A DNA stretch of 55,541 nucleotides from an uncultured Gammaproteobacteria bacterium (GTDB taxonomy: Bacteria > Patescibacteriota > Patescibacteriia > Magasanikbacterales > UBA922). Below, in pieces: positions 44,801 through 53,764 of the stretch. A model generated the notes under the pieces. The model was given only the letters and a program-made list of their open reading frames with translations. It was not told the origin of the DNA and ran no database searches. The DNA lies in contig CAZFUL010000003.1 in the NCBI GenBank assembly GCA_964522435.1, forward strand, positions 1 to 55,541, in the 5' to 3' direction. Every line of letters begins with the position of its first letter. The stretch's first letter is position 1. The translations under genes were made by a program, and so were the position numbers.

Positions 44801-45910
44801 ATGAAAATACTGATTGTGTCGGTTTCTGCAGGACAAGGGCATGTAAGTGCTGCACAAGCAATTGAAGATACAGCAAAAAAACAATATCCAAATATTGATG
44901 TTGTTCACATCGATATGATGGACTATGTAACAAGTGCCGTGCGCCACGCTATTGTTGATGTGTATGATGTATTGGTAAAAACAATACCTAGCCTGTGGGG
45001 GTATGTATATGAAAAAACAAACGATGAAAAACGCATGCGTCAGGTGAATAAAATAATGAATCGTATAAATTGTTTTCATGCAAAAAAATTCTATGCATTT
45101 GTAGAACAATATCAACCAGATCACATTATTTGTACGCATTCATTTCCAGCTCAAGTAATTCGTCAAGCCGATCTTCCTTCTATTGCGACTGTCCCAATTT
45201 CGCTCGTGGTAACAGATTATGGTTTTCATTCCTATTGGATTAGACCGGATATTACCCATTATTTTGTTGCCACAAAAAAAATGGCCTGGGAAATGCAGCG
45301 TCGTGGGATACAAAAATCTACCGTGACCGTCACGGGTATACCGGTTCGTCAGCAATTTTTAGAAAAAAAAGACACACAAACTGTAAAAAAGAAGTACGGC
45401 ATTGCGAAAGAATACGCTGTGCTATTAGTATTGGCAGGAGGGCAAGGTATGATGAAAAGCGATGGTATTGTTGAATTGTTGCAAACATATCAAGAGTGGA
45501 AGCGGCCGATATACATTATTGCGATCTCTGGAAAAAATGCCACTCTCTATGAGGCCTTACAAGACGTACAAAAAAAACCGAAACAGTCTCATATCATCGT
45601 TGAGGTGGTACAGTGGACGAATGATATTGATGAATATATGCGTATGTCGGATGTAATTATTTCTAAACCAGGAGGAAGTACGACGAGTGAATGTATGTTA
45701 TTGGGCAAACCAATGATAGCTGTAAATCCTATACCTGGACAAGAAGATACCAATGCAACGTCTATATTAGAACAAGGGCATGGCTATATTGCCCGCACAG
45801 ACGAAGAAATATTATATTATACAGAGTTGTTATTACAAAAGCCCGTATTAATACAGGCACAGGTACAAGATCCAGCAAAGAACATTTTGGAGTCTATTAT
45901 TCAAAAATAA
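44801..45910 (+). CDS. MGDG synthase / processive diacylglycerol glucosyltransferase-like (GT28, UgtP-like)
   Basis: SAGQGHVSAAQAI, PDHIICTH, VVTDYGFH..W, VTGIPVR, LAGGQG, ISKPGGST.SE, PIPGQE..NA. Confidence 0.88.
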   Translation: MKILIVSVSAGQGHVSAAQAIEDTAKKQYPNIDVVHIDMMDYVTSAVRHAIVDVYDVLVKTIPSLWGYVYEKTNDEKRMRQVNKIMNRINCFHAKKFYAFVEQYQPDHIICTHSFPAQVIRQADLPSIATVPISLVVTDYGFHSYWIRPDITHYFVATKKMAWEMQRRGIQKSTVTVTGIPVRQQFLEKKDTQTVKKKYGIAKEYAVLLVLAGGQGMMKSDGIVELLQTYQEWKRPIYIIAISGKNATLYEALQDVQKKPKQSHIIVEVVQWTNDIDEYMRMSDVIISKPGGSTTSECMLLGKPMIAVNPIPGQEDTNATSILEQGHGYIARTDEEILYYTELLLQKPVLIQAQVQDPAKNILESIIQK

Positions 45911-45940
45911 AAGATCCCCGGGTATACCGGGGATCTTTTT
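45909..45940. terminator. bidirectional terminator between glycosyltransferase and pilin array
   Basis: AAAAGATCCCCGG-GTATA-CCGGGGATCTTTT. Confidence 0.9.
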
Positions 45941-46403
45941 AAATGGCAAAGGGAGTAGCATCTTCTTCGAGTCCGTCATTCATATATTGTCGTTGGTCGG
46001 CTTCAAGAGAATCGGCAGGGCTTCCGGGGATAGGGTTGGGAGTAAGAAATTGAGTGACAAATAACGTAATTGAGTAAGCACTCAGAATAATAATAAGTCC
46101 CACAGCCCCACGAACAATGGTGAGCTTTCCTTTTTCTATCCGATCTTCGTTTCCCGCGGAGGTCATCCATAGAAAGCCACCCCACACGACATATACCAAT
46201 AACAGCGTTCCTAAAAGCGTCAATACATTACGAATTAACACCGCTGCCGCAATTCGAGGGTCAACGGCTTCACCAAAATTAGCTCCTTGCGTCCCAGCCG
46301 TTGCTTGGAGTTGCTTATCTAAATCATCCCTATAATCAGCCTGTGCACTAAGAGGGATGATAAGTGCTATAGAAAATAGGAAACAGAAAAAAAAGCGTTT
46401 CAT
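45939..46403 (-). CDS. VirB2/TrbC-like (T4SS_pilin) paralogue 1
   Basis: Signal peptide plus core WGGFLWMTSAGNEDRIEKGK...GLIIILSAYSIT. Confidence 0.82.
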   Translation of the reverse strand: MKRFFFCFLFSIALIIPLSAQADYRDDLDKQLQATAGTQGANFGEAVDPRIAAAVLIRNVLTLLGTLLLVYVVWGGFLWMTSAGNEDRIEKGKLTIVRGAVGLIIILSAYSITLFVTQFLTPNPIPGSPADSLEADQRQYMNDGLEEDATPFAI

Positions 46404-46411
46404 ATACGGTA

Positions 46412-46897
46412 TTAAAATTCTTCAGAATAATTTCCTGCACCACGAGCACAAGTTCCTCGAACAAGGTCAAAGACATTACAGGTGACAGAAGCTCCCTGGG
46501 GGGTAAGCCGATCACCTTGTACAGATTGCTGTACTAGTCTACCTACGTACAGCGTAATTGCGTAAGAAATAAGAATAACTACCAATCCAATAACTGCTGC
46601 GGGTAAGGTTTTTTTTGCTTTTTCTATGCGTTGGCCTTCACCACGGTCGGTAAGCCACCAGTAACCAGAGAGAATAATAAGTCCCATGAATATCGTTCCA
46701 ATCATCGTAAGCGATACTTGAATTATTTGTGCAATAATAATTCGTGGGTCAACGGGCGTACCAATTTCTGCACCCGCTGCGCCTGCTTGCAGTTGGGTGG
46801 ATACTGCGCCACTCAAATCGTTTGCCGCTAATACGGGGGTGGCAGCAAAGATAATCACGAGGCAGCAAAGACGTAATAATATGGAAAGGTATGTCAT
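46412..46897 (-). CDS. VirB2/TrbC-like pilin paralogue 2
   Basis: SGYWWLTDRGEGQRIEKAK...GLVVILISYAIT; 2-Cys tail. Confidence 0.82.
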   Translation of the reverse strand: MTYLSILLRLCCLVIIFAATPVLAANDLSGAVSTQLQAGAAGAEIGTPVDPRIIIAQIIQVSLTMIGTIFMGLIILSGYWWLTDRGEGQRIEKAKKTLPAAVIGLVVILISYAITLYVGRLVQQSVQGDRLTPQGASVTCNVFDLVRGTCARGAGNYSEEF

Positions 46898-46900
46898 AGA

Positions 46901-47371
46901 TTATCGTTCAATACAACGATTTGCTCGGCACAAAGATCCTTCTGGACAGTCGAGAGATGAATCACAGGCACCACCAGCTTCGGCACTTGGGTTTGCATTA
47001 CCACTTGCTCTGTTGACAATACGAGGAACCACAAAATTTGTAATGCTATAGGCACCAACGGTGATAATTAACCCAATAATCGCTGCTTTAATAATTTCTT
47101 GCGCTTTTTCAATATCGCTTTCATTTCCTCGAGCACTCATCCAAATAAACCCGGCATATACGGTAAGGAGTAAAAATATCGTTCCAACAAAGGAAAGGGC
47201 GACTTTAATCACCGCACCAATATTTTGGGCAAGGGTTGTTTCATTTGCTTCTGCAAAACCAGCTTGTTTGGCTGCTCCCGCAGCTAAGTCGCCTCCTAAA
47301 TCAAGCGCAAATACCACCGTAGGGATAACAAAAAAACTAATAATGAAAAGACTAAAAAGATATTTTTTCAT
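46901..47371 (-). CDS. VirB2/TrbC-like pilin paralogue 3
   Basis: YAGFIWMSARGNESDIEKAQ...GLIITVGAYSIT; 4-Cys tail. Confidence 0.84.
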   Translation of the reverse strand: MKKYLFSLFIISFFVIPTVVFALDLGGDLAAGAAKQAGFAEANETTLAQNIGAVIKVALSFVGTIFLLLTVYAGFIWMSARGNESDIEKAQEIIKAAIIGLIITVGAYSITNFVVPRIVNRASGNANPSAEAGGACDSSLDCPEGSLCRANRCIER

Positions 47372-47379
47372 AGAGTAAA

Positions 47380-47757
47380 TTAGCCTACTTGTCCCAAGCG
47401 AGAGGTAACAAGGGCAGTAATGGCATAAGCACTCATAACAACAATGAGGCCAATGACCGCTGCTTTAATAATTTCTTGAGCTTTTTCTATTTGGCCAGAA
47501 TCTCCACGCGCAGTCATCCAAAGGTAACCCGCATATACCGTTAATACAAGAAAAATTAACCCAACAAAAGACAGTGCAGTAAAAATAATTTGTCCGGCAA
47601 CAACATCTACTTGTGTTTCACTCGTACCTGCTTTTTTTCCTGCAGTGCCTAAATTTGTCATCGCATCTTTTAAACTACCAGCCGCATGTGTGGCAGAAGT
47701 AAGGCTAACAAAAGAAATCACAACGAGTAAGAGAAAAGAAAAAATTTTTTGTTTCAT
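47380..47757 (-). CDS. VirB2/TrbC-like pilin paralogue 4
   Basis: YAGYLWMTARGDSGQIEKAQ...GLIVVMSAYAIT. Confidence 0.84.
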   Translation of the reverse strand: MKQKIFSFLLLVVISFVSLTSATHAAGSLKDAMTNLGTAGKKAGTSETQVDVVAGQIIFTALSFVGLIFLVLTVYAGYLWMTARGDSGQIEKAQEIIKAAVIGLIVVMSAYAITALVTSRLGQVG

Positions 47758-47771
47758 ACGTATGAATGTAA

Positions 47772-48392
47772 TTATTGTTGACATTGAGCAAGACAGGTTT
47801 CTACTCGTTCAAGACCTACCCTAAATTCATAATCAGTGCCGTCGCAAAAATCATCTCCAACATCACAACGGGTTCCTTGTGTTTGACAATCTTGCATCGA
47901 GGTAACCCGACATGCCCAGCCAGCATTTACGCGATCGAGACAACAACCGAGGCGACTTCCATCTTGTCCTCCCGGAAGATCATTTCCCGATGCAGTCCCT
48001 TCAATGGTTGGTTGAAGTCGCGTGAGTAAAAACGAGGTAATGGCATAAGCAAATAATATCACGGCTAAACCAGCAAGCGCTGTGAAAAGCGTATTTCTAG
48101 CTTTGTTTACTTGATCATCATTTCCTCGAGCACTCATCCATAGTATACCAGCATATACGGTGAGACCCAAAAATAAGAGACCAACTAATCCCAACACTCG
48201 TTTGATGAGTTGGCCAGAAGAGTCACTAAGATTTTTTTGAGAAAGTCCAGTTTTTTGCGGATCAGACACTTGTTGTAAGAGTTGATCCGCATTATTAATG
48301 GTTAAATTTCCTTGTGCAAATACAGAAGCGGTACCAAAGAAAAGTACGGTACAACTAAGGATGGTTATGAGAAAAAATCTTCGTATATGCAT
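47772..48392 (-). CDS. VirB2/TrbC-like pilin paralogue 5
   Basis: YAGILWMSARGNDDQVNKAR...GLAVILFAYAIT; 8-Cys tail. Confidence 0.84.
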   Translation of the reverse strand: MHIRRFFLITILSCTVLFFGTASVFAQGNLTINNADQLLQQVSDPQKTGLSQKNLSDSSGQLIKRVLGLVGLLFLGLTVYAGILWMSARGNDDQVNKARNTLFTALAGLAVILFAYAITSFLLTRLQPTIEGTASGNDLPGGQDGSRLGCCLDRVNAGWACRVTSMQDCQTQGTRCDVGDDFCDGTDYEFRVGLERVETCLAQCQQ

Positions 48393-48404
48393 AAAAACAC
48401 GCTA

Positions 48405-48794
48405 TTAGGTATTTGGTTGGCCGGCTTGAGGAGGTTCAGCGCTTGTAAATATAAAGTTCGTAATCGCGTACGATCCAAGAACCACAATAAGACCAATAAT
48501 TGCCGCAATAATAGTTTCTTTTGCTTTATTTACCACACTATCCTCTCCACGGGCAGTCATCCATAAAAAGCCACCATAGACCATAAGAATGAAAAAAATA
48601 ACCCCAATCATAGAAAGAGCTGCCCCAATAAGCGTTCCAATAAGATCAGGCACCGAGCGATTATATTTTTGAGATAGACCCGCTGCTTTTGCGGTTGCAT
48701 CTGTACCAAAACTATCAGCGAATACGGGTTGAGATAGTGATAGAGCTCCAATAAATAAGGCGATACAGAGTAGGGGAAAAAAATATTTTTTCAT
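48405..48794 (-). CDS. VirB2/TrbC-like pilin paralogue 6
   Basis: YGGFLWMTARGEDSVVNKAK...GLIVVLGSYAIT. Confidence 0.84.
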   Translation of the reverse strand: MKKYFFPLLCIALFIGALSLSQPVFADSFGTDATAKAAGLSQKYNRSVPDLIGTLIGAALSMIGVIFFILMVYGGFLWMTARGEDSVVNKAKETIIAAIIGLIVVLGSYAITNFIFTSAEPPQAGQPNT

Positions 48795-48837
48795 AACAAT
48801 ACATTAAATGATCAAATAGGCATGCAAGAGCACCGCT

Positions 48838-49275
48838 TTATGTTGATGTAGGAGAAGGCTGTGGTGCGGGGCTACTTTCCAATGATTGAAAAACGAATTG
48901 GGTCATAGCATAGGCTGCTAATACAATCACTAAGCCAATGGATGCTGCCACAAGGGTATCTTTTGCTTTTTTTGTATACTCTTCTTTTCCATGTGCGAGC
49001 ATCCAGGTGAAGCCAGCATAAATGGTAAGAAGTAAAAAAATAACCCCTAAAAAAGCCAGGGCAACCCCCACAATAGTCCCGAGCAATTCTGGAACAGAAG
49101 AAGAAACACTGTTTTTTAAGGTATTATTTCCTACCTTGGATGCTCCTGCAATGTCACTTAATCCAAGGTCAGCTGAAATAGTTGGGCCACTTGTCAATAC
49201 CGGAGTGGTAAACAGAACGACTCCCAAAAAAAGAGGAAGAAGTAACAAACATAGATTGTTTACCACTCGACGCAT
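48838..49275 (-). CDS. VirB2/TrbC-like pilin paralogue 7
   Basis: YAGFTWMLAHGKEEYTKKAK...GLVIVLAAYAMT; start moved to 49275 to avoid overlap. Confidence 0.8.
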   Translation of the reverse strand: MRRVVNNLCLLLLPLFLGVVLFTTPVLTSGPTISADLGLSDIAGASKVGNNTLKNSVSSSVPELLGTIVGVALAFLGVIFLLLTIYAGFTWMLAHGKEEYTKKAKDTLVAASIGLVIVLAAYAMTQFVFQSLESSPAPQPSPTST

Positions 49276-49288
49276 AGACAGGTAGAAT

Positions 49289-49687
49289 TTATTGCGGTGC
49301 ATCTTGATAGTCTCCCGTGGTTGCTTCGTATGCTTGGCGGGTGACGTAGGTTGTAATTGAGTAGGCACTTAAGATAATGATAAGACCAATAACTGAGGAA
49401 ATAATAATACTTTTTGCTTTACCGATTTGATCATCATTCCCTGCCGCTGTTGTCCATAAGATACCAGCGTAGACAATGAGCGCGACCATAATGGTTCCTA
49501 AAAGAGGAAGGAGACCTTTATTAATAATGGTGGCAACGGTAACACGAACATCTTGATCTTTTAGGCCGGTGGCTCTTCCTGGAGCAAGTCCAAGAGGGTC
49601 TTGTTGCGCACTAGCCAATTCTGGCGTGTACAATACGACTCCTGTAAGCAAGAGGAGCATTGCACCTACGATGACACGTTTTCTCAT
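49289..49687 (-). CDS. VirB2/TrbC-like pilin paralogue 8
   Basis: YAGILWTTAAGNDDQIGKAK...GLIIILSAYSIT. Confidence 0.84.
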   Translation of the reverse strand: MRKRVIVGAMLLLLTGVVLYTPELASAQQDPLGLAPGRATGLKDQDVRVTVATIINKGLLPLLGTIMVALIVYAGILWTTAAGNDDQIGKAKSIIISSVIGLIIILSAYSITTYVTRQAYEATTGDYQDAPQ

Positions 49688-49798
49688 AGCGTGAAAATAG
49701 ATTAAAAATATGTTTTAAAAAGTTTTCGCAACAGTGGCGTGTTACGAACACTTCTTAAAAGGGGAGAACTCTACCCCTTAATTAAGAGGGGCTTATCA

Positions 49799-50254
49799 TT
49801 AAAAATCTATTTGATCAGCACCATCTACGTTTGTTGCTTGCCCGATTTTGACTAAAGCAAATTTTGCTAAAGACCATGAGGCGAGAACAATTACTAACCC
49901 GATAATACCAGCAATAATAATTTTTTTTGCTTGGGCAACGGCATCGTCATTACCACCGGCGGTCATCCAACGGAAACCACCCCATAGCATAATGACAACA
50001 GAAATAATCGCTAAAAAGCCAATAATGACATTAATAACTTCAGCAATAGTAACAATCGGAGATTGTGTTCCAAGAGCCGTGTTATCTTCAAATTCATTAA
50101 TTCCTTCTTGGATAGGACTGACGTTCGCATTATTGCCACGACCAGCACCTGCTTGTGCAGAGGCAGATTGAACAAAGAAAACCATGCTCAAAAAGAGGGC
50201 CATAGCCATGAGAACTGCTGTTTTATTTTTTGTAAGTACTTGTGTTGTATTCAT
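49799..50254 (-). CDS. VirB2/TrbC-like pilin paralogue 9 (candidate major subunit)
   Basis: WGGFRWMTAGGNDDAVAQAK...GLVIVLASWSLA; strong SD AAGGGGGTGA before ATG 50254. Confidence 0.84.
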   Translation of the reverse strand: MNTTQVLTKNKTAVLMAMALFLSMVFFVQSASAQAGAGRGNNANVSPIQEGINEFEDNTALGTQSPIVTIAEVINVIIGFLAIISVVIMLWGGFRWMTAGGNDDAVAQAKKIIIAGIIGLVIVLASWSLAKFALVKIGQATNVDGADQIDF

Positions 50255-50290
50255 GTAGCTCACCCCCTTTCTTGGGAAGGATTAAATAGG

Positions 50291-50869
50291 TTATTTGGGC
50301 TTGCAACACACAATATTTGGTGTTGCACCACAACGATTTACTTTACAGATATTACTTGCCGCATTTCTACACTCTTGCCAGGTTGCGGGTTCAGGAAGTC
50401 CTGCACACTCTTGCACAGGCAGACATTGAAATCCTTCTGCCCCGAAAAGTTCGACACAATCGCTTGCAGGGCCACCACCAGGATTTGGGGTCGTTGTTGC
50501 TGGACCTTCTCCGGAATTATTGCGTAAACCAGTAATAATTGTACTCAGTATAGCATAGGCACTAAAAATTACCAAGAGACCAATTGCCGCATACATCATG
50601 GCATGGCTGCCTTTTTTTACCATATCTTCCCGACCTGCTGAGGTAAGCCAAAGAACGCCACCATAAATAAAGGCAAGTAATGTGAGAGAACCAAGAATAC
50701 CTAAGCCCGAGGTGATTATTTTTCCTAAAATAATGGGAATACTGGTATTTCCAATAGGATTGCTAATCACGATATCAGAAGAAAATTCCTGCGCAGCGGC
50801 AATACTTACTATCGCACAAGAAAGGCCGATGCTACAAAGAAGAACAAACATGTATCTATAATAGTGCAT
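50291..50869 (-). CDS. VirB2/TrbC-like pilin paralogue 10
   Basis: YGGVLWLTSAGREDMVKKG...GLLVIFSAYAI; 8-Cys tail ending CCKPK. Confidence 0.82.
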   Translation of the reverse strand: MHYYRYMFVLLCSIGLSCAIVSIAAAQEFSSDIVISNPIGNTSIPIILGKIITSGLGILGSLTLLAFIYGGVLWLTSAGREDMVKKGSHAMMYAAIGLLVIFSAYAILSTIITGLRNNSGEGPATTTPNPGGGPASDCVELFGAEGFQCLPVQECAGLPEPATWQECRNAASNICKVNRCGATPNIVCCKPK

Positions 50870-50876
50870 ACCCAGG

Positions 50877-51500
50877 TTACTGAACAGCGCGGAACGCACT
50901 GCTGACATTTAATGTATCGAGTAAAAAGTCTACGGCAATATAGGCGCTTAAAGAAATAATAACACCTGTTATCGCAGCAATCAAAATTTCTTGCCCTTGT
51001 TTAAATTTTTCTGGGTTACCAAATGAGGCTGTCATGATAATACCCCCATAAATAAACATAATAAAGGCAACGGATCCAATAAGAGAAAAAATAAATTTGC
51101 CAACATTAATGGCTAATTCAATGAGGCTATTTATATCTCGACAGCCTGTTTCTGAGAATGCACAGGATGGGATAGGGCCAGCATAATTATCTGGAAGTCC
51201 AGCGCTGTCTTCGCATTGTGTTGCGGTTTCGTTATATATACAACCCGCCACTCCTGGGGTGCTGCACGCCTTTGTGCAAAATGTTGTCGGCGTATCCTGT
51301 CTTCCTACCGCAACGCCTTTTTGTTGAAAAGCAGCTTCTATCCCTGGAATGTTAAATATACCATCTTGTTGTGGATAGATAACACAAAGCGTTTGTTCAT
51401 TTTTTGTAAAACGACATGTTGCGGCCGATGCCTCATGATACGGGATCAATACACCAAAAAACAGAGAAAAAAGAACTGAGGGGAACAACAAATATTTCAT
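50877..51500 (-). CDS. VirB2/TrbC-like pilin paralogue 11 (N-terminal Cys-rich domain)
   Basis: YGGIIMTASFGNPEKFKQGQ...GVIISLSAY at the C-terminus. Confidence 0.8.
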   Translation of the reverse strand: MKYLLFPSVLFSLFFGVLIPYHEASAATCRFTKNEQTLCVIYPQQDGIFNIPGIEAAFQQKGVAVGRQDTPTTFCTKACSTPGVAGCIYNETATQCEDSAGLPDNYAGPIPSCAFSETGCRDINSLIELAINVGKFIFSLIGSVAFIMFIYGGIIMTASFGNPEKFKQGQEILIAAITGVIISLSAYIAVDFLLDTLNVSSAFRAVQ

Positions 51501-51505
51501 ACAGG

Positions 51506-52882
51506 TTATAAGGTTTGTTGAATAGTTTGCGCTGCTCGTTGTAATAGTTCTGTATCTCTTTTTATCGCATCTTCTCCTTCTGGCACCGGAACAAGGTAGG
51601 AATCAATCATCGTTTTAATTGCTTCTGTTGCTACGGCTGCATTTTTACCGCGGTACCAATTTTGTGCGGTGAGCACTTGGGTCGCGAATGGGGAGAGAAG
51701 CGGGCTGTCAATTTGTTCTGCAATGTGCGCCCGTACGGGGGAGGGTTGTTGGACCGCTTCTGTATAGCGTTTAATATTATTTTGACTCGTGATAAAGCGG
51801 ATAAAGTCCCAAGCAATATCTTGATGAGGTGATTTTTTTACCACAGATTGAATCCAATAATTCGCAATATTGATAGGTTGATTTTGATTGAGTTGGGGTA
51901 ATGGGATAATTTCAACATTCATTTGAGGGGCACGCTCTCGAATGCGTGTTGCATCAAAGGCATAGCCAATATAAAACGCACTTTGTCCTCGGGTAAATGC
52001 CTCAAACGCTGTATCTTTTTCTGCGTTCCAACTGTACACATCTTTTGTTGGTTGGGCAAAATCAGTATAAAATCGCAGCACTTCAAAAGAGGGATGATTC
52101 ATACCTAATTGGCGTAAGTTTGCGTCAAGGGTCACTGTGCCATCATTGATAATTGCAATATTTCTTTGCAACAATAGGGTGGCAAAGATGTCGGCGGCAT
52201 TATCAATATTACTGCCTGTTCCAAGGGGAACACCAGATTGAATAATGCGACCATCAGCGCCAAAGGTCGTCGTCTTTTTTACCGCATCTAGAAATTGTTC
52301 CCAACTCTCTGGAGGGGTAGCAACACCGGCTCTGTCCAAAATGTCTTTATTATAATATACCGCGAGGGTATCAATAGAAAGAGGAATACCGTAGACATCC
52401 CCATCAATAATTACATCGTCTGCAACGGTTTGTACAAAATTTGTTTCAATCGCTCGTGGGGTGGGCATGGCAAAATTTTGTAGGGTCACCACGGTTTCTT
52501 TTCTATAATTTCCTTGGATAGATACGTCAGCGACTTGTACTTGGGCAGGCATTGGGGCAAGCCGAGGTTGATACTTTCTCATCCAATGCGCATGGACAGA
52601 AACAAGATCTGGACTCACATCATCTGCAAGGGCATTGGTAAACAGGGTATCAAATTCCTCGTAACGAATTTGTCGAATCGTAATGTTTACATAGGGACGA
52701 AGGGCAGTATATTCTTTGGCAAACTCCCGTAGCAGGGTAACGTCGTCAAATACCGTCCAGTACTCGAGGGTCACGGGGCGAATCGCTGCTTGTTGTTCTG
52801 ACGTCAGTCCTTTACAGCCTAAGCCTAAAAATATCCATATGATACAGATAAGGCTGATACGAAAAAAGGAAAAACGATTCAT
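51506..52882 (-). CDS. extracellular solute-binding lipoprotein (carbohydrate-type family)
   Basis: Lipobox FLGLG-C, VTLEYW, DDVSPDLV, YGIPLSIDTLAVYYNKDIL, PESWEQF, AWDFIRFI. Confidence 0.88.
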   Translation of the reverse strand: MNRFSFFRISLICIIWIFLGLGCKGLTSEQQAAIRPVTLEYWTVFDDVTLLREFAKEYTALRPYVNITIRQIRYEEFDTLFTNALADDVSPDLVSVHAHWMRKYQPRLAPMPAQVQVADVSIQGNYRKETVVTLQNFAMPTPRAIETNFVQTVADDVIIDGDVYGIPLSIDTLAVYYNKDILDRAGVATPPESWEQFLDAVKKTTTFGADGRIIQSGVPLGTGSNIDNAADIFATLLLQRNIAIINDGTVTLDANLRQLGMNHPSFEVLRFYTDFAQPTKDVYSWNAEKDTAFEAFTRGQSAFYIGYAFDATRIRERAPQMNVEIIPLPQLNQNQPINIANYWIQSVVKKSPHQDIAWDFIRFITSQNNIKRYTEAVQQPSPVRAHIAEQIDSPLLSPFATQVLTAQNWYRGKNAAVATEAIKTMIDSYLVPVPEGEDAIKRDTELLQRAAQTIQQTL

Positions 52883-52903
52883 ACAAGAACAGGCTTAAAA
52901 CGA

Positions 52904-53764
52904 TTAAAGTATTTGATTAAAGATAAATTGAACAACGGCGTAACTGCTTAAAATAATAATAACGCCCATCCCTCCCCAGAGCATTGTTTTCATCGCTTGT
53001 TGTTCTTTTGAGGAATTTCCTGCCGCAGTCATCCATAAAAATCCTGCATAGATCAATATAAGTAAGGCAATACTTCCAATAATTCCCATCACAATACGAA
53101 TACCCACACCAATGAGTTCTGGAATTGATTTTACGGATAATAGGTTTAACTCTTTTATTTGGTTTTCAAGACCATTTGTATCAATTTCTGGAATCGTGGG
53201 GTTTGTCGGTATTGTTGGAGATGCTGCTAATCGTGCCGAACAAGAAAGAATTGCTATTCTATAATAGCCATTAACTACAAGGGGAACGCCTGGTTCTCGT
53301 TCTATTCCTCTGATGGTGGTGTTTGGTATGCGCTGATACCCTACGCTGGCTCCTGTTTGTGGAAGGGCGGTACAGTCATTTTCTTCACGGAGTTCAAAGG
53401 GAGTTGGTTCTGGTGCTCCATTAGAAATTGGTGCTGGAAAAAAAGGGGGGCCTCCACCAAGAAGCCCTTGAATTGTAGCGGTAAGTTCTGAAGCAGAAAT
53501 GACATCAGATATCGTATATTGTTTTGTTGCATTAAAGGGCATTGACTTTGTCATTGGGTGAGTTGCATCGACCAAGGCATCAAATTCCTCTGCTGTTCGA
53601 GGGTAGTTTCTATTATTGAATGTTCGATAATCCCTGAACCCCGCTACTTGTAATTGACAAATACACGTCCCTGTCACGCTTGTTTCTGTTTGTGCAACGG
53701 CAATCGGAGTAATGCTAAAAAAAACAATAACAGAAGTAAGAAGTGACAGGGAGAATAGTTTCAT
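52904..53764 (-). CDS. VirB2/TrbC-like pilin paralogue 12 (large N-terminal extracellular domain)
   Basis: C-terminal YAGFLWMTAAGNSSKEQQAM...GVIIILSSYAVV; about 170-aa N-terminal domain with 4 Cys. Confidence 0.8.
   Translation of the reverse strand: MKLFSLSLLTSVIVFFSITPIAVAQTETSVTGTCICQLQVAGFRDYRTFNNRNYPRTAEEFDALVDATHPMTKSMPFNATKQYTISDVISASELTATIQGLLGGGPPFFPAPISNGAPEPTPFELREENDCTALPQTGASVGYQRIPNTTIRGIEREPGVPLVVNGYYRIAILSCSARLAASPTIPTNPTIPEIDTNGLENQIKELNLLSVKSIPELIGVGIRIVMGIIGSIALLILIYAGFLWMTAAGNSSKEQQAMKTMLWGGMGVIIILSSYAVVQFIFNQIL

Follow-up and report, generated by a model that had tools for sequence, protein, structure and literature searches.

Why bacteria of the candidate phyla radiation (CPR) retain large, even essential, arrays of divergent pilin genes is a standing question, and it is raised here by a stretch of 55,541 nucleotides (contig C3, positions 1-55541; hereafter the window) from the genome of an ultra-small bacterium (11 contigs, about 1.0 Mb, 97% completeness), recognisable as Patescibacteria (CPR) by its size and content. 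The window carries twelve pilin paralogues, par1 to par12, with the hairpin core of the VirB2-type pilins of type IV secretion systems (T4SSs), which are regarded as minimal, unadorned subunits. VirB2-like pilin arrays of 2 to 11 genes have been found in 383 CPR assemblies (Quinonero-Coronel et al. 2025, PMC12102498), and a six-gene array of this kind is essential in Ca. Southlakia epibionticum ML1 (Wang et al. 2023, as reviewed in PMC12857230). The present locus offers a testable explanation, in which about half of the copies would serve to carry ectodomains that are unrelated to one another, are stabilised by disulfides and turn over in the form of cassettes. Six of the paralogues carry Cys-containing appendages, and we consider it quite likely that these are extracytoplasmic, disulfide-bonded domains set on a pilin-type hairpin.

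The twelve genes lie on the minus strand between 45939 and 53764, tightly packed head to tail and interrupted once, by a gene for a solute-binding lipoprotein at 51506-52882. Most likely they form one operon of VirB2-like (Pfam T4SS_pilin) subunit genes, and a terminator-like hairpin at 45909-45939, with none comparably strong inside the array, suggests a single transcription unit that ends there. The original prediction, made from the sequence of the window, had placed the array at 46412-53764; the array is indeed present there, but par1 (45939-46403) falls just outside those limits. Gene calls and signal-peptide trimming were heuristic, and the N termini of orthologues suggest that the listed open reading frame (ORF) starts of par4, par7 and par10 lie upstream of the real ones. 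The latter are probably ATGs at 47757, 49275 and 50869, with which the apparent overlaps vanish. For comparison we used, among others, L039, a 10.9-kb metagenome contig of a closer relative whose array matches that of the window one to one in synteny, with 12 pilins as well as the solute-binding gene and a flanking MGDG-synthase-like gene. From the end of the array to its start, the features are as follows.

45909-45939, minus strand: terminator-like hairpin, a 13-bp stem followed by a T run, beginning on the final base of the stop codon of par1
45939-46403, minus strand: par1, signal peptide, pilin hairpin core and a 37-residue acidic tail without Cys
46412-46897, minus strand: par2, pilin core with a 42-residue tail (46415-46540) holding two Cys, C140 and C150, both kept in L039
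46901-47371, minus strand: par3, core, Gly/Ser/Ala linker and an 18-residue unit with four Cys, CDSSLDCPEGSLCRANRC (tail 46904-47026), all four kept in L039
47380-47784, minus strand: par4, bare pilin core, probable start at the ATG at 47757
47772-48392, minus strand: par5, core, flexible linker of about 20 residues and a domain of about 57 residues with eight Cys (tail 47775-48023)
48405-48794, minus strand: par6, bare core with a short Pro/Gln tail
48838-49368, minus strand: par7, core with a short Pro/Ser tail, likely start at the ATG at 49275
49289-49687, minus strand: par8, bare pilin core
49799-50263, minus strand: par9, bare pilin core with the top PF18895 score of the array
50291-50908, minus strand: par10, core, Gly/Pro/Thr linker and a 55-residue domain with eight Cys that ends in CCKPK (tail 50294-50533), likely start at the ATG at 50869
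50877-51500, minus strand: par11, signal peptide, N-terminal domain of about 100 residues with eight Cys (51126-51422), then the pilin core
51506-52882, minus strand: gene for an SBP_bac_1/8 solute-binding lipoprotein, between par12 and par11
52904-53764, minus strand: par12, signal peptide, N-terminal domain of about 190 residues with four Cys (53129-53692), core at the extreme C terminus

The SBP_bac_1/8 gene is adjoined by no ATP-binding cassette (ABC) permease or ATPase gene and occupies the same slot in L039 (L039:1597-2970); in the arrays of more distant relatives, a gene-sized gap is found where it would correspond.

The scaffold shared by these proteins is well defined. All twelve paralogues matched Pfam PF18895 (T4SS_pilin). 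In eleven, the score (28.1 to 37.1 bits) exceeds the gathering threshold of 26.6 bits; par2 scored 18.3 bits, below that threshold, yet was aligned across the whole hairpin and was recovered by a hidden Markov model (HMM) built from the cores. In the alignment, the core spans about 70 residues and is a hairpin made of a hydrophobic helix, a W-M-T-A-x-G-N...K-A-K loop and a second hydrophobic helix, and it is preceded by a cleavable Sec-type signal peptide ending in AxA and a short spacer. Matches to TrbC/VirB2 (PF04956) lie under the cut-off of 27.9 bits, the best in the window being par6 (16.8 bits, E=0.008) while one relative reaches 21.1 bits, and those to NCBIfam NF045849 (Mycoplasma integrated conjugative element [ICE] pilin-like) are likewise sub-threshold, at up to 37.5 bits (par12) against a cut-off of 40. 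Basic residues are densest in the loop between the helices, at 2.9 Lys plus Arg per 17 residues compared with 0.9 to 1.4 in the flanks, which, by the positive-inside rule, fits a cytoplasmic location of the loop. Because a cleavable signal peptide is followed by two membrane spans, the N-terminal domain would be exported and the C terminus would come back to the same side, so that both mature ends, and hence the appendages, are predicted to lie outside the cytoplasmic membrane. Signal peptide, spans and basic loop thus argue for extracytoplasmic rather than cytoplasmic appendages, in keeping with the original prediction that they are displayed.

Our position-by-position count bears out the Cys content first claimed for these appendages, namely 2, 4, 8 and 8 in the C-terminal ones of par2 (residues 140 and 150), par3 (136, 142, 148 and 153), par5 (150, 151, 161, 169, 176, 183, 200 and 204) and par10 (151, 162, 168, 180, 188, 193, 201 and 202), and 8 and 4 in the N-terminal ones of par11 (29, 39, 75, 79, 87, 96, 113 and 120) and par12 (34, 36, 131 and 175). 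The cores in the window contain no Cys, and all Cys outside the appendages sit in signal peptides. As had been said of par1, par4, par6, par8 and par9, these proteins are bare or have short low-complexity (Pro/Ser/acidic) tails, and the same is true of par7, which had gone unmentioned. The appendages had also been called mutually unrelated, and by BLASTP no pair in the window is similar at E<1e-3. As for a common repeat underlying the appendages, a loose C-x5-C-x5-C-x4-C pattern (par3-type) matched just 6 of 99 of them, and this candidate was rejected.

The even number of Cys in every appendage, noted at the outset, also extends well beyond the window. We counted parity separately for the N-side and C-side regions, with signal peptides excluded, in the source genome and in relatives represented by syntenic arrays from 20 different genera of the same family and order, in which 187 further pilin-core ORFs were recognised with the window-core HMM. 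The Cys-containing appendage regions of pilin-core proteins are even in 12 of 12 cases in the source genome (binomial p=5e-4) and in 98 of 101 in the 20 related genomes (binomial p ~1e-25), that is, in 110 of 113 regions across 21 genomes, which is beyond chance, whereas the cores contain a total of 3 Cys in 14,057 residues. That N-side and C-side regions are each even independently fits a location of both in an oxidising compartment. An even-Cys bias in exported proteins is a mark of disulfide-forming organisms (Daniels et al. 2010, PMC2823432), and a crude genome-wide split gave even-to-odd ratios of 76:33 for exported-like and 169:222 for cytoplasmic-like proteins. Even parity is thus a genome-wide rule for the exported proteins of this organism and no speciality of its pilins; what is special to the pilins is the density of Cys, at 5.6% in appendages of at least 30 residues versus 0.73% in exported proteins genome-wide, and their modular arrangement. 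An exhaustive profile search returned 71,872 family representatives (50% identity) at E<=1e-3, and the best 150 of these, mostly with 2 to 17 tandem cores and crudely trimmed, gave 63 even to 25 odd counts, which is supportive but not clean.

Conservation in relatives points in the same direction. The L039 array keeps 34 of the 34 appendage Cys of the window; the N-terminal domains of par11 and par12 are just 29% and 21% identical to their L039 counterparts, and their Cys are nevertheless kept (4 of 4 in par12). An orthologue of par10 (P0002) retains all eight Cys at 53% identity, and so do independent orthologues of par5 at 50 to 55% identity, save one that lacks C176 and C183 together. In the par5 family, these two residues are jointly present or jointly absent in 8 of 8 sequences, with totals of 8, 8, 6, 8, 6, 6, 4 and 6 Cys. 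The Cys that define the appendages are therefore conserved in orthologues, and where they are lost in the par5 family they are lost pairwise.

The modularity that had been proposed for these appendages is equally apparent, as whole even-Cys modules are present in one orthologue and absent from another. The L039 orthologue of par1 contains an inserted 8-Cys block of two C-x5-C-x5-C-x4-C-like units between conserved flanks ending in DATPFA(I/L), and that of par7 has a 64-residue tail with eight Cys where par7 itself has its short Pro/Ser tail (L039:8148-8861 and L039:5219-5833, respectively). Closely related cores also carry a domain at opposite termini: in the protein database, the proteins with the cores nearest to that of par10 (P0005 and P0010) have N-terminal domains with six and four Cys and no C-terminal tail. 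Of the 115 appendages compared by BLAST in the 21 genomes, 78 are singletons, and tails at equivalent array positions range from about 18 residues with 4 Cys to 510 residues with 38 Cys. In one relative (L014:6506-7915), we observed a 347-residue tail with 32 Cys and three repeats of CG(N/D)GTC...E...CP.DC, unlike the par3-type unit. In par11, whose word-indexed homologue search returned par11 alone and whose orthologues were found via synteny, a membrane-proximal module, PxGYxGPxPxCAFSxxGCR, is conserved and the distal part is variable (99 to 386 residues).

With the closest orthologues at 29 to 77% protein identity, synonymous sites are saturated, and turnover was therefore compared as the identity of cores versus that of appendages. 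In par5 and par10, tail and core have diverged equally fast (52 to 60% identity for the C-terminal tails versus 54 to 65% for the cores), and the N-terminal domains evolve much faster than the cores. Turnover of appendages is seen in the gain and loss of cassettes, and not in the pace of change within the C-terminal tails. On this comparison, the pattern is best described as modular turnover, with no sign of hypervariability at short evolutionary distance.

Structure models were obtained with AlphaFold for par5 and par11, and in both the appendage is predicted to be folded. In the AlphaFold2 model of par5, from a 4-sequence alignment, tail residues 150-206 form the highest-confidence stretch (predicted local distance difference test score [pLDDT] ~80), a beta-hairpin followed by a helix, a strand and a helix, set on a flexible linker (residues 126-145, pLDDT <50), and the core is again a helical hairpin. 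The par11 model, from eight sequences, has an alpha/beta N-terminal domain (pLDDT 65 to 77) and a helical hairpin (pLDDT 70 to 83). Foldseek searches of both models against the PDB gave no match at E<1 and nothing for either appendage. In a Pfam and NCBIfam scan, the appendages of the window and nine large ones from relatives matched no domain, barring two exceptions: the par3 tail resembles the EB module PF01683 below threshold (18.8 bits, cut-off 24.3), and a 32-Cys tail of one relative passes Dickkopf_N PF04706 (28.4 versus 25). No appendage matched a known binding domain in these two databases.

The original prediction also called for a search for DsbA or VKOR, and the genome encodes both. 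One VKOR gene (89.4 bits) directly adjoins a DsbA-like gene, and there are six DsbA-like (Thioredoxin_4/DSBA) proteins, the two inspected being membrane-anchored with CPFC and CDNC motifs. Two of the six genes lie directly upstream of genes for Cys-rich pilin-core fusion proteins of 462 residues (contig C4) and 680 residues (contig C1). This arrangement is conserved in other genera, where a DsbA-like gene stands directly upstream of the orthologous 462-residue-type fusion at 13 of 14 loci, the 14th being truncated, and of the orthologous 680-residue-type fusion at 12 of 12. The two-gene operons, at C4:58628-60790 and C1:37455-40114 in the source genome and at L025-L038 and L041-L052 in relatives, encode fusion proteins with a pilin-type hairpin mid-protein and Cys domains flanking it on both sides. 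The C1-type protein, with its GDSL hydrolase domain and SLT-like (VirB1-like) motif, would be a VirB2-VirB1-like fusion. DsbA genes inside the arrays themselves were also considered and rejected, as there are none in 20 array loci. MdbA-like oxidoreductases are enriched in CPR bacteria, often adjoin VKOR, and have been proposed to act on type IV pilins (Meheust et al., bioRxiv 10.1101/335083); a linkage of DsbA to VirB2-type cores is not reported in that work.

Taken together, topology, parity (110 of 113), the 34 of 34 conserved Cys, paired loss, the VKOR and DsbA genes and the AlphaFold models strongly, if indirectly, support the initial description of the appendages as disulfide-stabilised mini-domains on a shared scaffold. 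We therefore propose the following model. The proteins would be inserted via Sec and their leader removed by signal peptidase, leaving a two-helix membrane hairpin with both mature ends outside, which in six paralogues bears a small domain at one end, on a flexible linker where it is C-terminal. The Cys of each domain would pair among themselves into intradomain disulfide bonds, with membrane-anchored DsbA/MdbA-like oxidoreductases oxidising the ectodomains and VKOR re-oxidising the oxidoreductases. The domains would behave as cassettes that are gained, lost or replaced between genera as whole even-Cys units, at either terminus of closely related cores. The solved structures of F pili have the loop facing the lumen and the two termini exposed on the outside (PMC5018250), an arrangement that would explain why a cassette can occupy either terminus. 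Thereafter, the hairpin might either stay in the membrane or be extracted into a T4SS-type filament.

The other pilin cores and the T4SS genes of the source genome bear on which of these two fates applies. VirB4, VirB6 and VirB3 genes are absent from the 55-kb window. Five pilin-core genes lie outside it, four of them encoding fusion proteins (besides those of 462 and 680 residues, proteins of 712 and 3,705 residues on contig C6); the fifth is a small gene for a 122-residue protein without Cys, located within a T4SS-like locus on contig C2 (C2:736-11318). Alongside a VirB4-like ATPase, that locus encodes a 918-residue coupling-protein-like ATPase, a 298-residue protein, a 437-residue polytopic VirB6-like protein, a 152-residue VirB3-like protein and a 253-residue peptidase-like protein, and it may be an integrated conjugative element rather than a chromosomal CPR system. 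In the protein library (P0021-P0170), we also observed many polypeptides in which 2 to 17 T4SS_pilin hairpins stand in tandem with no internal signal peptides, such as P0022 (555 residues, 6 cores) and P0034 (1775 residues, 17 cores). These tandem-core proteins are multi-pass and cannot be ordinary pilus subunits unless processed.

Several other explanations of the Cys themselves have to be weighed against intradomain disulfides. Dense Cys on a polymerising scaffold, with CC doublets in par5 and par10, might instead form disulfides between neighbouring subunits that staple a filament or surface lattice, but this is very unlikely given that parity is even inside each separate appendage region, that loss is paired within one domain, that the Cys patterns of neighbouring paralogues are unrelated, that bare cores offer no Cys partner and that AlphaFold predicts compact monomeric folds. 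We give very little weight also to a scenario in which the pilin-like part is a carrier from which the tails are cleaved as knottin- or defensin-like toxins, bacteriocins or signals against the host bacterium. In its favour, the tails are Cys-dense, 18 to 80 residues long and set behind flexible linkers, with no homologues of known function; the linkers, though, contain no conserved cleavage motif, the N-terminal appendages abut the core through a conserved module, and the operon has no gene for a dedicated peptidase or exporter. Groups of four or eight Cys recall zinc ribbons and zinc knuckles, in which such clusters are typical, but the binding of zinc or another metal in place of disulfides is scarcely credible for extracytoplasmic domains with spacings such as C-x5-C-x5-C-x4-C and CC, no CxxC...CxxC pairs and no His partners, whose even parity and paired loss to 6 or 4 Cys suit disulfides and not tetrahedral sites, and whose family is linked in operons to DsbA-like oxidases. 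Finally, the upstream misplacement of several listed starts (par4, par7 and par10) might raise the suspicion that the appendages are untranslated or mis-called and their even counts coincidental; this view is effectively refuted by reading frames and Cys that are conserved in independent metagenomes and by the significance of parity across 21 genomes.

How the hairpin presents these domains is a separate matter, on which two readings that leave the disulfides untouched carry about the same weight. Tentatively, and with rather less than even confidence, we infer that a T4SS-type pilus of mostly bare paralogues incorporates the decorated subunits, or is capped by them, and that these act there as surface-binding (host-contact) modules, which would be in line with the host-recognition repertoire first proposed. 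In the competing scenario, decorated paralogues would never polymerise, and the VirB2-like hairpin would merely tether disulfide-bonded ectodomains, and elsewhere in the genome enzymes and a giant adhesin, to the surface, with a filament, if any, formed by the bare paralogues alone. Such anchoring would readily accommodate the other fusion partners of the core, namely a GDSL hydrolase that has an SLT-like motif, a 288-residue domain and extensions of 572 and 3,580 residues, as well as the tandem-core polypeptides. What favours display on a pilus is that both pilin termini face outward in solved conjugative pili, that the tails are small (18 to 80 residues) and borne on flexible linkers of 15 to 25 residues, that decorated genes are interleaved with bare cores in one operon and their products could be diluted within a filament, and that a cultivated Saccharibacterium cannot do without its VirB2-like pilin array (PMC12857230). 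A number of our observations weigh against this reading, or against parts of it. The array is not beside T4SS machinery, the sole T4SS-like locus found being the one on C2, whose 799-residue VirB4-like ATPase (P-loop_TraG, DUF87) matches generic P-loop models only. Pilin cores elsewhere in the genome carry enzymes or the 3,580-residue extension, which would be hard to fit in a tightly packed filament, suggesting that the hairpin could be no more than an anchor. When the core profile was searched against PDB sequences, it retrieved no VirB2 or TraA, solely spurious matches to designed 'Pizza' repeats (each stretch with an i-Evalue >100), and the top Foldseek match of the par11 model, the archaeal conjugation pilus 8dfu of Aeropyrum pernix, is not significant (E=1.5, probability 0.77, target-normalised TM-score [TMt] 0.58). 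The C-terminal tails, which keep pace with their cores, give no sign of diversifying selection. The support for disulfides is comparative or predictive throughout, and the AlphaFold models, from 4 and 8 sequences, have a mean pLDDT of just 61 to 64.

A more encompassing scenario, which we regard as somewhat doubtful, would make the VirB2-type hairpin a general display module across the order: interchangeable binding cassettes, knotted by disulfides and swapped between termini and paralogues in the course of evolution, would decorate or cap a T4SS-type pilus of bare subunits, and two larger pilin-core fusions, one of them cell-wall-hydrolase-like, would each be folded by their own co-transcribed DsbA. 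The operon linkage of two DsbA genes to pilin-core fusions across an order assigns candidate clients to part of the expanded DsbA/MdbA repertoire. If the pilus display holds, these proteins would be the first natural modular conjugative-type pilins and would provide a concrete candidate for the factors that mediate host contact and underlie the essential pilin arrays found in epibiotic CPR bacteria. Even though the organism is uncultivated, small stable Cys-rich domains could be expressed alone for binding screens against host envelopes.

Canonical conjugative pilins have about 60 to 75 residues when mature, are in some cases acetylated or cyclised, and bear no extra domains. TraA of F, TrbC of RP4 and VirB2 of Ti share with the proteins described here a signal peptide and, after it, two helices joined into a hairpin by a basic loop; the window proteins differ in their added domains, fall below the Pfam TrbC cut-off and match no solved structure. 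The Mbov_0395 family of Mycoplasma ICEs (NF045849) shows a weak, full-length similarity to the hairpin and a monoderm T4SS context, but its members have about 80 residues and no appendages, and all window scores are below the cut-off. A functional parallel, by analogy only, is provided by modular type IV pilins such as PilB and PilC of Streptococcus sanguinis (Raynaud et al. 2021, PMC8179133), in which an adhesive module is grafted onto a conserved polymerising module of a minor subunit among plain ones. Type IV pilins, however, belong to an unrelated filament superfamily, whose subunits have a single N-terminal helix and a class III signal peptide that is cleaved off by a prepilin peptidase, whereas the window proteins have Sec-type AxA signal peptides and a hairpin core.

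With the DsbA/MdbA-VKOR pathway that folds exported proteins and pilins in monoderm Actinobacteria, this system has in common an even-Cys bias of exported proteins, membrane-anchored CxxC oxidases of the thioredoxin fold and a VKOR adjoining one of them; it differs in the linkage to proteins with VirB2-type pilin cores, through two conserved operons of a DsbA gene and a pilin-core fusion. A full-text literature search on CPR, cysteine-rich and pilin returned the MdbA paper (bioRxiv 10.1101/335083) alone, and the published array descriptions that were searched (PMC12102498 and PMC12857230) mention neither Cys, disulfides nor VirB2 domain fusions. Pilin arrays are thus already known in Patescibacteria, and modular Cys-rich additions to VirB2-type pilins appear not to have been described before; judged from comparative sequence data, the new elements would be modular disulfide-rich VirB2-type pilins and the conserved operons of DsbA and pilin-core fusions. 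The published Patescibacteria arrays remain the closest counterparts, with the same core family, tandem and strongly diverged paralogues in a monoderm CPR genome, an occasional break by a non-pilin gene and a frequent separation from relaxase genes. From those arrays of 2 to 11 genes, the present locus stands apart by its twelve genes and by the Cys-rich ectodomains on half of them.

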